From the IMG/VR virus record IMGVR_UViG_2537561618_000005: DNA of 13,194 bases. One strand, given 5' to 3'. Positions 358 through 13,194 of the stretch are shown here, piece by piece. The notes below the pieces were generated by a model. That model was not told the DNA's origin and searched no databases. It saw nothing but the letters and a program-made list of their open reading frames with translations. Within the stretch, counting starts at the first letter, position 1, and each line of letters opens with the position of its first letter. Made by a program: the position numbers and the translations under genes. The DNA is from a virus (taxonomy: Duplodnaviria > Heunggongvirae > Uroviricota > Caudoviricetes).

Positions 358-448
358 TAGACTGGCCCCCTGAATCTCCAGACAACCAGTATCACTTATT
401 TAAGTGATAGTCTTAATACTAGTTTTTAGACTAGTCATTGGAGAACAG

Positions 449-814
449 ATGATTGATGTCTTAGGGCCGGAGAAACGCAGACGGCGTACCACACAGGAAA
501 AGATCGCAATTGTTCAGCAGAGCTTTGAACCGGGGATGACGGTCTCCCTCGTTGCCCGGCAACATGGTGTAGCAGCCAGCCAGTTATTTCTCTGGCGTAA
601 GCAATACCAGGAAGGAAGTCTTACTGCTGTGGCCGCCGGAGAACAGGTTGTTCCTGCCTCTGAACTTGCTGCCGCCATGAAGCAGATTAAAGAACTCCAG
701 CGCCTGCTCGGCAAGAAAACGATGGAAAATGAACTCCTCAAAGAAGCCGTTGAATATGGACGGGCAAAAAAGTGGATAGCGCACGCGCCCTTATTGCCCG
801 GGGATGGGGAGTAA
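449..814 (+). CDS. insC: IS2 OrfA (InsC) transposase regulatory/HTH protein
   Basis: ATG at 449 preceded by GGAGAA. Translation [56 protein letters not shown]...[18 protein letters not shown] matches IS2 InsC from memory. The ORF-track start at 404 lies inside the IS terminal repeat and is unlikely. Confidence 0.9.
766..772 (+). promoter_or_regulatory. A AAA AAG programmed -1 ribosomal frameshift heptamer of IS2 (insC to insD)
   Basis: A6G run at 766-772 where the insC frame (frame 2) overlaps the insD frame (frame 1). IS3-family elements make the OrfAB transposase by -1 frameshifting at such motifs. Confidence 0.6.
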
Positions 815-1677
815 GCTTAGTCAGCCGTTGTCTCCGGGTGTCGCGTGCGCAGTTGCACGTCATTCTCAGACGAACCGATGACTGGATGGATGGCCGCCGC
901 AGTCGTCACACTGATGATACGGATGTGCTTCTCCGTATACACCATGTTATCGGAGAGCTGCCCACGTATGGTTATCGTCGGGTATGGGCGCTGCTTCGCA
1001 GACAGGCAGAACTTGATGGTATGCCTGCGATCAATGCCAAACGTGTTTACCGGCTCATGCGCCAGAATGCGCTGTTGCTTGAGCGAAAACCTGCTGTACC
1101 GCCATCGAAACGGGCACATACAGGCAGAGTGGCCGTGAAAGAAAGCAATCAGCGATGGTGCTCTGACGGGTTCGAGTTCTGCTGTGATAACGGAGAGAGA
1201 CTGCGTGTCACGTTCGCGCTGGACTGCTGTGATCGTGAGGCACTGCACTGGGCGGTGACTACCGGCGGCTTCAACAGTGAAACAGTACAGGATGTCATGC
1301 TGGGAGCGGTGGAACGCCGCTTCGGCAACGATCTTCCGTCGTCTCCAGTGGAGTAGCTGACGGATAATGGTTCATGCTACCGGGCTAATGAAACACGCCA
1401 GTTCGCCCGGATGTTGGGACTTGAACCGAAGAACACGGCGGTGCGGAGTCCGGAGAGTAACGGAATAGCAGAGAGCTTCGTGAAAACGATAAAGCGTGAC
1501 TACATCAGTATCATGCCCAAACCAGACGGGTTAACGGCAGCAAAGAACCTTGCAGAGGCGTTCGAGCATTATAACGAATGGCATCCGCATAGTGCGCTGG
1601 GTTATCGCTCGCCACGGGAATATCTGCGGCAGCGGGCTTGTAATGGGTTAAGTGATAACAGATGTCTGGAAATATAG
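772..1677 (+). pseudogene. insD: IS2 OrfB (InsD) transposase catalytic domain, interrupted by in-frame TAG at 1354-1356
   Basis: Frame 1 is InsD-like throughout ([20 protein letters not shown]...SSPVE then [41 protein letters not shown]...NRCLEI). Codon 1354-1356 is TAG where IS2 InsD has W (VEWLTDNG) in my memory, immediately before the DNG catalytic region. The track splits it into ORFs 772-1356 and 1411-1677 in the same frame. Confidence 0.8.
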
Positions 1678-1733
1678 GGGCAAATCCAGTATAAGCCATT
1701 ATCAAACCCACCCGTAGATAGGCTTTGTAATGG

Positions 1734-2021
1734 CTACTTCTTCAGAAATGATTCGATGAATTCACGTCGAGGATGACGATAGTTCAGAATATCTTCTGGC
1801 ATCCTCATAAAGCGGTTGTTGCCGTCTTTGGCAGTAACAAAACAGCTGTGAACTCCGCAGACATCCGTTTTGATCGTGTCGCTATACTCAAAAAGCAACT
1901 GAGCCATCTTCTCTTGCCATTCTGGAGGCATAGCCTCCATGAATACTCGCGGCATCACGCAGAACGACGTATGCGTAAGACCAAACCACAGTTGCAGGTC
2001 TTTACGATATTCTTCATCCAT
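1734..2021 (-). CDS. Hypothetical 95-aa protein ([95 protein letters not shown]), family not recognised
   Basis: ATG (reverse complement of 2019-2021) preceded by AAGGT with 6-nt spacing. The ORF-track ORF 1734-2117 continues upstream only because the frame stays open into the IS911 left end. The stop is 45 bp from the IS2 right end. I could not assign a family from memory. Confidence 0.4.
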
Positions 2022-2085
2022 CGTCTTTACCTTTGTTGCAATGATGAAGTGGCACACTGAATTTGGCCACCTGAACAGAGGTGAT

Positions 2086-2418
2086 ATGCTCACCTCAGAA
2101 CAACACAGGTGCTCCAATGAAAAAAGAAATTTTAGCGCAGAGTTTAAACGCGAATCCGCTCAACTGGTTGTTGACCAGAAATACACGGTGGCAGATGCCG
2201 CCAAAGCTATGGATGTTGGCCTTTCCACAATGACAAGATGGGTCAAACAACTGCGTGATGAGCGTCAGGGCAAAACACCAAAAGCCTCCCCCATTACCCC
2301 GGAACAAATTGAAATCCGTGAGCTCAGGAAAAAGCTACAACGCATTGAAATGGAGAATGAAATATTAAAAAAGGCTACCGCGCTCTTGATGTCAGACTCC
2401 CTGAACAGTTCTCGATAA
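2086..2418 (+). CDS. IS911 OrfA-like HTH protein; canonical start appears frameshifted, in-frame alternative ATG at 2086
   Basis: Frame 1 reads ...[98 protein letters not shown], which matches IS911 OrfA from memory. The expected ATG at 2117-2119 is in frame 2 because the following A-run is 6 nt (2120-2125), apparently one shorter than canonical. The nearest in-frame ATG is 2086, with GAGG 5-8 nt upstream. Confidence 0.55.
2367..2373 (+). promoter_or_regulatory. A AAA AAG programmed -1 frameshift heptamer of IS911 (OrfA to OrfAB)
   Basis: ATATTAAAAAAGGCTACC near the 3' end of orfA; orfB is in the -1 frame relative to orfA. The IS911 frameshift motif is well characterised. Confidence 0.65.
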
Positions 2419-2444
2419 TCGGGAAACTCAGAGCGCATTATCCT

Positions 2445-11547: not shown

Positions 11548-11598
11548 GTTTAACGGACACTCCTTCCTGAAATAGAATGGCATCAGAAGGAGCTAATA

Positions 11599-11618
11599 AT
11601 GAGCAGAAAAACCCAACG
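11599..11618 (+). pseudogene. Start of an unidentified gene (AAGGAG RBS plus ATG, MSRKTQR...) truncated after about 7 codons by the IS629-like element
   Basis: AAGGAG at 11587-11592, 6-nt spacer, ATG at 11599. The frame runs into the IS left end at 11619 and terminates 15 codons later inside the IS. Confidence 0.3.
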
Positions 11619-11672
11619 TGAACCGCCCCGGGAATCCTGGAGACTAAACTTCCTGAGAAAGAGGTAAACAGG

Positions 11673-11999
11673 ATGACTAAAAATACTCGTTTTTCCCCCG
11701 AAGTCCGTCAACGGGCAGTCCGTATGGTTCTGGAAAGTCAGGGCGAATATGACTCACAATGGGCGACAATTTGTTCCATTGCCCCAAAGATTGGCTGTAC
11801 GCCGGAGACTCTGCGTGTCTGGGTTCGCCAGCATGAGCGGGATACCGGGGGCGGTGATGGAGGGCTCACCACCGCTGAACGTCAGCGTCTGAAAGAGCTG
11901 GAGCGTGAAAATCGTGAACTGCGCCGCAGTAACGATATCCTTCGCCAGGCTTCCGCTTATTTTGCGAAGGCGGAGTTCGACCGCCTCTGGAAAAAATGA
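11673..11999 (+). CDS. IS629-like OrfA (HTH / leucine-zipper transposase N-terminal protein)
   Basis: [108 protein letters not shown] matches IS629/IS1203 OrfA from memory. Confidence 0.9.
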
Positions 12000-12882
12000 T
12001 GCCACTGCTGGATAAGCTGCGTGAGCAGTACGGGGGCGGACCGCTATGCAGCGAACTGCATATTGCCCCGTCAACGTATTACCACTGTCAGCAACAGCGA
12101 CATCATCCGGATAAACGCAGTGCCCGTGCGCAGCGCGATGACTGGCTGAAGAAAGAGATACAGCGCGTATACGATGAAAATCACAAGGTATACGGTGTAA
12201 AGTCTGGCGTCAGTTGTTACGGGAAGGTATCAGAGTGGCCAGATGCACTGTGGCACGTCTCATGGCGGTTATGGGACTTGCCGGTGTTCTCCGGGGTAAA
12301 AAGGTCCGTACGACCATCAGCCGGAAAGCCGTTGCCGCAGGCGACCGCGTAAACCGTCAGTTCGTGGCAGAACGACCTGACCAGCTGTGGGTGGCTGATT
12401 TTACTTACGTCAGCACATGGCGGGGCTTCGTCTATGTGGCGTTCATCATTGATGTGTTTGCCGGATACATCGTGGGGTGGCGGGTCTCATCGTCCATGGA
12501 AACGACATTCGTGCTGGATGCACTGGAGCAGGCGTTATGGGCCCGTCGACCGTCCGGCACGGTCCATCACAGTGATAAAGGTTCTCAGTATGTATCGCTG
12601 GCCTACACACAGCGGCTTAAGGAAGCCGGATTACTGGCATCAACAGGAAGTACAGGCGACTCGTATGACAACGCGATGGCGGAGAGCATCAATGGTCTTT
12701 ACAAAGCGGAGGTAATACACCGTAAGAGCTGGAAAAACTGTGCAGAAGTGGAACTGGCCACACTAACGTGGGTGGACTGGTATAACAATCGACGATTGCT
12801 GGAAAGGCTGGGCCACATCCCTCCGGCAGAAGCAGAAAAAGCTTATTATGCTTCCATCGGAAACGATGATCTGTCAGCCTGA
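11996..12882 (+). pseudogene. IS629-like OrfB transposase (DDE) with an internal frameshift near 12197-12202
   Basis: Frame 2 (11996-12352) encodes [68 protein letters not shown] and then nonsense. The OrfB sequence resumes in frame 1 from about 12199 ([24 protein letters not shown]...DFTYV...[10 protein letters not shown]...[15 protein letters not shown]...). The frame change is consistent with a 1- or 4-nt deletion. Confidence 0.75.
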
Positions 12883-12924
12883 GTTCACAGATAAAACACT
12901 CTCCAGGAAACCCGGGGCGGTTCA

Positions 12925-13194
12925 GTTGTCGAACCAGTAGTCGAGACACTGGGCGACCGTCATGGAGTTCTCCACCTTCTCTTCAAAATAAGTGCGTGGA
13001 TCCGTTCCTGAGAAATAGAGCTTTCGCAAGTCAGCAGTGATCTGTCTGGCATCCTTCAAAGACAGGGATGGGTATCGACCAAGCCCAAGTCGATTAGGCT
13101 TGCCATGCCAGCGATAGCGGTACTGGAACTGGATGACCCCCTTCGGTGAAATTCGTACGCTGAGGCCATCAGCATCAGCCACTTCTTGTGGGCC
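12925..13194 (-). pseudogene. Tyrosine recombinase (P4-type phage integrase) N-terminal arm-binding domain fragment; 5' end beyond window, 3' end truncated at the IS629-like junction
   Basis: Minus-strand translation ...GPQEVADADGLSVRISPKGVIQFQYRYRWHGKPNRLGLGRYPSLSLKDARQITADLRKLYFSGTDPRTYFEEK... fits the integrase N-terminal pattern (GL.V.V.PKG.K.F.YRYR..GK..R..LG.YP..SL..AR). The frame is open to the window edge. The terminating TGA is supplied by the IS terminus (reverse complement of 12922-12924). Confidence 0.7.

Follow-up and report, generated by a model that had tools for sequence, protein, structure and literature searches.

Shigella chromosomes hold hundreds of copies of insertion sequences (IS) such as IS1, IS2, IS4, IS600, and IS911, and inversions and deletions through homologous exchange between copies have been described (Hawkey et al. 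2020, PMC7373316; Seferbekova et al. 2021, PMC8072062). Sf101-like prophages have been disrupted by IS elements in the oacB "transposon-like structure", where oacB is relocated, according to Jakhetia et al. 2014 (PMC4159516) and to Wang et al. 2014 as cited there. For IS26, rearrangements have been analyzed through reciprocal target-site duplications (He et al. 2015, PMC4471558). Targeted insertion of IS911 beside its own inverted repeats, and a network of inverted-repeat targeting for IS30, have also been reported (Loot et al. 2002, cited in PMC9333248). Here we describe a Shigella flexneri locus in which IS2, IS911, and IS629 all lack target-site duplications. The stretch analyzed (the window) corresponds letter for letter to the full length (13,194 bp) of AFHC01000013.1 in draft assembly GCA_000213475.2, a 2011-era draft contig with three repeats internal to it. 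It was compared with about 40 related S. flexneri loci (labelled in the style L001; L005 is CP026871.1 and L013 is CP034060.1).

The window is the same in kind as the known IS rearrangements of Shigella, with genes truncated at IS borders, and it provides one worked example at nucleotide resolution. Its DNA is that of the oacB structure and of the Sf101-like prophage remnants of S. flexneri: gp14 to gp16 are of Sf101 type, and so is the integrase fragment. In relatives, the published oacB structure, situated between adrA and psiF, is this region. In L013, the oacB structure runs from adrA-ATC-IS629 through oacB to IS629-ATC-psiF, and two direct IS629 copies bracket the remnant at adrA-psiF. 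The window does not have this bracketed remnant. It holds only the coat-to-gp16 part and the right IS629, without oacB, adrA, psiF, the tailspike fragment, and the left IS629 arm. Moreover, its right IS629 arm adjoins an integrase fragment, whereas psiF stands there in the oacB structure, and its head genes are P22-type rather than Sf101-type. As with IS26, mismatched half-repeats reveal the exchange partners (ACG/ATC for IS629, CAA for IS911). The IS26 patterns come from replicative transposition, whereas the elements here are of the copy-out/paste-in IS3 family and the exchange is most simply homologous recombination.

A preliminary description of this DNA had reported that the three complete IS copies have no target-site duplication, and direct reading of the sequence together with control copies bore this out. 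IS2 has the ends TAGACTGG...CAAATCCA and the flanks ATCCC and GTATA, IS911 has the ends TGAAGTGG...CCACTTCA and the flanks TGA and TGG, and IS629 has the ends TGAACCGC...GCGGTTCA and the flanks ACG and GTT. The curated K-12 IS2A, whose ends and length equal those of the window IS2, is surrounded by the 5-bp repeat ATTAC. The 5-bp direct repeat is a property of the insertion event and not of the IS2 element. Under the same end definition, a control IS911 copy in L005 (19183-20430) is flanked by ATC/ATC, and the E. coli IS911 copies H108 and H109 align to exactly window positions 2045-3292. The window's own IS629 insertion has ACG/ACG in L005, the alignment of E. coli IS629 copies reaches 12924, and for an annotated IS600 of L004 the repeat is GTC/GTC.

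Unrelated flanks would be identical by chance in 1/1024 cases for 5 bp and in 1/64 for 3 bp. In uninterrupted references, none of the three flank pairs is contiguous, as simple insertion would require. IS2 stands between the ISSfl3 gene and a lambdoid small open reading frame (ORF), IS911 between the same small ORF and coat codon 48, and IS629 between IS600 nt 84 and integrase codon 107. As the flanks are not contiguous, the absence of repeats is simply expected. At least one of the two flanks of each complete IS has very probably been replaced after insertion, hence the lack of target-site duplications. Repeat-less copies are the rule here: in the S. flexneri loci fetched, a sample biased to this region, a repeat accompanies 0 of 3 IS2, 1 of 7 IS629, and 1 of 11 IS911 copies that are full-length and distinct.

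For IS629, the left junction with IS600 (IS600...CAACG-IS629) is common to all related loci and the right flank varies. L005 retains ACG on both sides (right flank ACG-IS600), most genomes have ATC-psiF, and the window has GTT-integrase. IS600-ACG-IS629 is the primary insertion junction, and L005 is a primary simple insertion in which IS600 resumes after IS629 with ACG duplicated. Evidently, IS629 first inserted in IS600, making the repeat ACG, and homologous exchange with other IS629 copies then replaced the right flank. In the finished genome CP034060.1, the prophage copy reads ACG-IS629-ATC-psiF, and a second copy 17.6 kb upstream reads adrA...ATC-IS629-ACG-IS600. By their flanks, these two copies are the two halves of a reciprocal exchange, together bracketing the oacB structure. 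Between these direct copies (L013, 702-19628), the remnant has an order that is a circular permutation of that in L005; each copy has ACG toward the inside and ATC toward the outside. Such a permutation would follow from an IS629-bearing circle integrating into or with an IS629 at the adrA-psiF site. The length of this element is 1306 bp in the window and, but for three copies of 1304-1305 bp, throughout the S. flexneri loci fetched. It is presumably IS629, which has a reference length of about 1310 bp; RefSeq labels the 99%-identical E. coli copies just "IS3 family transposase".

The integrase fragment on the right side of IS629 is 100% identical to integrases of E. coli prophages at the sbcB site and 99.6% identical to Sf101 int, and its stop codon is created at the IS629 junction. 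The exact 107-aa truncated integrase was found on 42 contigs, including strain 2457T (AE014073.1), LM651928.1, and CP007037.1. There, the order is cusB'-integrase'-GTT-IS629-TCC-tailspike fragment-IS2-'cusB, and TCC-IS629-GTT-integrase lies within cusB in 9 loci. In CP007037.1 and LM651928.1, the IS629 in cusB has the orientation opposite to that of the prophage copy, at a distance of ~240 kb. Exchange between the prophage and cusB copies would invert the interval and give ACG-IS629-GTT with the integrase on the minus strand, as in the window. The predicted reciprocal product is TCC-IS629-ATC-psiF, i.e., ...GGTGTTATCC-IS629-ATCAGGTATCAGG (psiF). The partner of the integrase junction (...GACGTAGTT next to the left inverted repeat, IRL, of IS629) had no match in an exact-pattern scan of one-genome-per-species contigs, in which Shigella may not be represented as its own species. 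We also considered the integrase as part of a native sbcB attachment site, with the IS629 junction as a simple internal deletion. This was rejected because Sf101 int and the late genes are co-oriented but opposed in the window, and because finished S. flexneri genomes have the truncated integrase within cusB. The cusB block itself is found in L024-L033 (e.g., AE014073.1 481986-502309), where it splits the gene and consists of the truncated integrase, IS629, a piece resembling a tailspike gene, and IS2; L026 lacks 3.3 kb of this block, from IS629 through most of IS2.

The 84-bp IS600 end in the window provides the stop codon of the truncated gp16, whose homology to the intact gene stops at 11534. 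The full IS600 in L005 is flanked by AGT/ACT and joins gp16 (Sf101 position 13248) to a tailspike fragment (Sf101 position 15761), and thus IS600 is also a deletion endpoint without a repeat.

The IS911 of the window has TG...CA ends, orfA and orfB, and a length of 1248 bp, in line with the roughly 1250 bp of this element; imperfect terminal inverted repeats were detected, and ~99%-identical copies are named IS911 in RefSeq. Homology of the coat gene to the intact gene begins at 3293, directly after the element. IS911 most likely inserted in coat codon 48 and made the repeat TGG, of which the window retains the right half, so that the junction of the right inverted repeat (IRR) with TGG-coat is probably the primary right junction. 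In L015, the coat is preceded by IRL-CCA, the reverse complement of a primary TGG-IRL junction. This suggests that the window shows the orientation in which IS911 originally went into the coat gene, and that the right junction seen there is the primary one. Later steps were probably deletions from the IS911 end into the late operon and exchange with a CAA-bearing IS911 copy. In the finished genomes L008 and L041, one IS911 joins the small ORF to the late operon, and across the loci the IRL of that element abuts five nested points, one in portal (L005 position 284) and the others at window positions 3293, 6595, 7012, and 10968. This is the picture expected of IS-associated adjacent deletions.

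Two other IS911 flanks, X (...GCCGCAA) and R1 (starting CAATGCAGG), are contiguous in L005 with an overlap of CAA. GCA_000213675.2 has two IS911 copies, X-CAA-IS911-TGG-coat (L014) and small ORF-TGA-IS911-CAA-R1 (L043). The CAA halves on two copies are thus the signature of a reciprocal exchange, and the split repeat implies an earlier small ORF-IS911-coat arrangement, which is the flank combination of the window. The predicted reciprocal junctions are X ...GCCGCAA-IRR...IRL-AAATCAACTTTCG (IS600 nt ~130) or coat 5' ...GTGTGG-IRL. The 5' partner of the coat (coat...GTG N0-6 TGAAGTGG) had no match in the same one-genome-per-species scan, with the same limit for Shigella, and a protein search for the 48-aa coat N-terminus expected left of IS911 returned no S. 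flexneri-type 48-aa product. One 48-aa E. coli match (P0003) was rejected as the partner, as it is a contig-end truncation ending ...GTGTGGA without an IS junction. Two unrelated E. coli contigs (L022 5001-5145, L023 516-660) end with ...GTGTGGA, one nucleotide beyond coat codon 48, the IS911 site of S. flexneri, and in both an HNH endonuclease gene separates scaffold from coat. Their end point may be a mosaic boundary or a coincidence. In orfA of the window IS911, an A-run (about position 2120) has one A fewer than in all finished genomes. This deletion is found only in the drafts AFHC, AFHB, and AFGV of one sequencing series, and it is therefore probably a 454 homopolymer sequencing error and not a real frameshift. 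For the same reason, we rejected the frameshift as the mark of an old, dead IS911 copy.

IS2 (358-1688) aligns end to end with K-12 IS2A with 9 substitutions and 0 indels. In orfB, a TAG nonsense codon at 1354-1356 replaces the TGG of K-12 IS2A; both frames are present, with products of 194 and 88 aa, and judged from these frames the copy looks inactive unless complemented in trans. The pattern of single-nucleotide polymorphisms (SNPs), including the nonsense codon, is identical to that of the IS2 at the cusB locus of L028 (UGYS01000001.1), which has different flanks, and the L008 copy differs from the window at seven positions from 433 to 1355. Since IS bodies at one locus vary among strains, this match is weak evidence, and the shared allele is a sign only of frequent exchange or conversion between copies.

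The right side of IS2 is common to all relatives. Positions 1689-2042 match, at 99.7% identity, a segment that lies between Rz and the terminase genes in E. coli prophage DNA; in 12 S. flexneri loci, this small-ORF segment has the same IS2 on one side and an IS911 on the other. In 12 loci, ten of them complete or near-complete chromosomes, the arrangement is type VI secretion system (T6SS) island...GTGTA-IS2-GTATA-small ORF. The left flank ISSfl3...ATCCC was found only in the window. In an intact ISSfl3 gene, ...TTCATCCC is followed by TGCCGGCAGCC, which differs from what stands 3' of IS2 in the window. As this left flank is specific to the window, it was probably swapped by exchange with another IS2 copy, an account established in part. 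The reciprocal junction would be T6SS ...CATTGTGTA-IS2-ATCCCTGCCGGCAGCC (the rest of ISSfl3). No E. coli genome searched has a joined T6SS/small-ORF site, and thus the conserved IS2 arrangement is itself a breakpoint. The 4-of-5 match between GTGTA and GTATA was considered as a decayed IS2 repeat and rejected on the same ground. A protein search with the ORF reading through from ISSfl3 into IS2 gave no match covering the chimeric C-terminus, and in a plasmid search no record carried the ISSfl3-IS2 junction.

Repeats could be present and simply hidden if the IS ends had been placed 1-3 nt off, and the preliminary description had named such a shift as the observation that would overturn its claim. 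We shifted the ends by up to 4 nt. For IS2 and IS629, no shift produced a repeat, so the absence stands. For IS911, shifts of -1/-1 and +2/+2 gave ATG/ATG and GATG/GATG. These matches are a coincidence produced by the TGA/TCA tips. The control copy does not bear them out, and in any case the two flanks are unrelated DNA (the lambdoid small ORF and the P22-type coat gene). Moreover, the ends of IS911 are fixed by the ATC/ATC control copy and by the aligned E. coli copies, and those of IS2 are identical to curated IS2A. Hidden repeats are therefore hardly credible. Several points do weigh against the replacement of flanks by exchange and deletion. The joins ISSfl3-IS2-small ORF, small ORF-IS911(+)-coat, and IS600-IS629-integrase are private to the window and were found in no other genome reached. 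They come from one draft assembly, and their reciprocal junctions are only predicted. In addition, the window IS629 retains the SNPs of the prophage copy to within 50 bp of its right end, so that a crossover would have to fall within the final ~50 bp, unless the partner copy had already been homogenized. Placing the crossover by IS-internal SNPs was rejected as weak, as the same locus holds different IS alleles among strains. Lastly, homologous recombination plus simple deletion cannot explain the presence of the same flanks on opposite IS911 ends, which is taken up below. The private joins would also be expected if the mismatched flanks were an assembly artefact, in which a path through collapsed IS2, IS911, and IS629 repeats made real junctions look linked across each 1.3-kb IS. 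The window is the whole of a draft contig, it has the homopolymer error common only to sister drafts, and the sequence signature of a true recombinant does not differ from that of a chimeric path. When the chimeric ORFs (a 388-aa coat and a 125-aa orfA fusion) were looked up, only the window's contig was returned. However, sister drafts are collinear with finished genomes over the same IS elements (L010 and L008, 100% over 21.7 kb; L032 and L025, 99.98% over 20.3 kb; L014 and L013, 99.9% over 12.6 kb), and finished genomes also hold repeat-less copies at these positions. The IRR-coat junction was recovered in an independent unitig assembly of SRR060520, so it is not a contig artefact and that rearrangement at least is real. 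Furthermore, column 1121 of the window IS629 is a T found otherwise only in L009 and L013, which speaks against a pasted-in genome-wide consensus. We consider an assembly artefact unlikely and retain the replacement of flanks after insertion.

Exchange inside an IS never alters which IS end a flank touches. The flank ...GCAATGA adjoins IRR in seven genomes, but in the window and CP034060.1 it adjoins IRL. For the coat flank TGGATGCC, the adjoining end is IRL in L009, L012, L013, and L014, IRL followed by an additional CCA in L015, and IRR in both the window and the SRR060520 unitig. The left junction of IS911 would thus have required an extra event other than homologous exchange, and the IS911 account is direct only in part. 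Possible routes are an in-situ inversion of the element through its own inverted repeats, an illegitimate deletion between the like-sided tips of two inverse copies, and insertion that targets the end of an IS911 already in place. The IRL and IRR tips share their outer 8 bp, TGAAGTGG. That reversal of IS911 between the same flank nucleotides, by in-situ inversion or illegitimate tip-to-tip recombination, is a recurrent mode of rearrangement in S. flexneri is a tentative suggestion at present. A related idea is that a single transposase step (intramolecular adjacent deletion or inversion, or insertion beside a resident IS911 end), and not insertion followed by RecA-dependent exchange, gave rise to the secondary IS911 junctions and perhaps to others. 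The joining of one IRL to five nested late-operon positions, with one of few other flanks, is the picture of classical IS-promoted adjacent deletion, and three additional nucleotides are seen at some IS911 tips (TGA beside the small ORF, though not in L035; CCA in L015). Copy-out/paste-in elements are not known for efficient one-step replicative deletions, and the split CAA repeat and the reciprocal IS629 pair are plain signatures of homologous exchange. Insertion of IS911 beside its own ends (Loot et al. 2002, cited in PMC9333248) likewise takes place exactly at a resident tip, sometimes with a 3-nt spacer. However, this pathway is reported to yield only tandem IRL-IRR junctions (PMC9333248), which would not flip the element, whereas the window has the same flank on the opposite end. 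A one-step origin is possible but doubtful. The tip at the small ORF is itself polymorphic by 3 nt, with ...TTGCAA-IRR in CP026871.1 (L035) and ...TTGCAATGA-IRR elsewhere (L036-L044). The added TGA matches the three bases with which the IS end begins, and it could be due to slippage or be the remnant of a circle-junction spacer.

The preliminary description had ascribed the locus to IS-mediated deletion and recombination between copies. This is supported by the reciprocal IS629 half-repeats, the split CAA, the nested IS911 endpoints, and the strain-variable left flank of IS2; the account holds in kind and is incomplete for IS911, where the same flanks occupy opposite ends. Its statement that every IS junction is a breakpoint was overstated, as IS600-ACG-IS629 is primary (ACG on both sides in L005) and IRR-TGG-coat is probably so. 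When partner junctions were looked for elsewhere, as it had advised, the IS629 ACG/ATC pair, the IS911 CAA pair, and the cusB GTT-integrase junction were found, and the window-specific pairings were matched in no other genome. The three complete copies that it listed are real, and two IS fragments, of ISSfl3 (1-357) and of IS600 (11535-11618), had been overlooked (Table 1). With these included, the window is in all likelihood the remnant of a P22/Sf101-like serotype-converting S. flexneri prophage that was cut up by five insertion sequences.

Table 1. Features of the 13,194-bp window, with the basis of each assignment
Feature	Position	Strand	Basis
ISSfl3 (IS66-family) transposase gene, internal fragment, cut off by IS2	1..357	+	99.7% identity to genes annotated 'IS66-like element ISSfl3 family transposase'
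IS2, 1331 bp, both ends complete	358..1688	+	Ends and length match curated K-12 IS2A
Lambdoid prophage late-region piece, 356 bp, with a 95-aa ORF at 1734-2021	1689..2044	-	Matches E. coli prophage DNA
IS911, 1248 bp	2045..3292	+	RefSeq 'IS3-like element IS911 family transposase'
P22/Sf101-like late genes: coat without first 47 codons, gp4, gp10, gp26, gp14, gp7, gp20, truncated gp16 transglycosylase	3293..11534	+	Homology, Pfam
IS600, left 84 bp, broken by IS629	11535..11618	+	Comparison with L005 and L004
IS629, 1306-bp form	11619..12924	+	E. coli copies align
Sf101/phage-2851-type integrase, codons 18-107, cut by IS629	12925..13194	-	Matches E. coli sbcB-site prophage integrases

The late genes are 94-97% identical to those of E. 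coli P22-like prophages. From gp14 to gp16 (7409-11534), the identity to phage Sf101 is 98%, and upstream of gp14 it is 72-88% or there is none. Outside this contig, the sequence variant of the gp10 protein (5194-6612) was seen in just one Logan contig, from SRR060520.

The loss of target-site duplications by replacement of flanks is already known and ordinary for Shigella. It is a textbook consequence of IS expansion in this genus, and nothing here is new in kind. Half-repeats can nevertheless trace the exchange partners in the serotype-relevant oacB/Sf101 remnant and in the cusB insertion, and IS-spanning joins in draft contigs call for long-read confirmation. The end-switching of IS911 is the sole item here that deserves follow-up. 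If true, it is a reversal predicted neither by homologous exchange nor by canonical copy-out/paste-in transposition, and the orientation of an IS at a fixed site would be an unstable phylogenetic marker. If it is real and general, it would affect IS typing tools that record site and orientation, and it would be a route of rearrangement uncharacterized for IS3-family elements.

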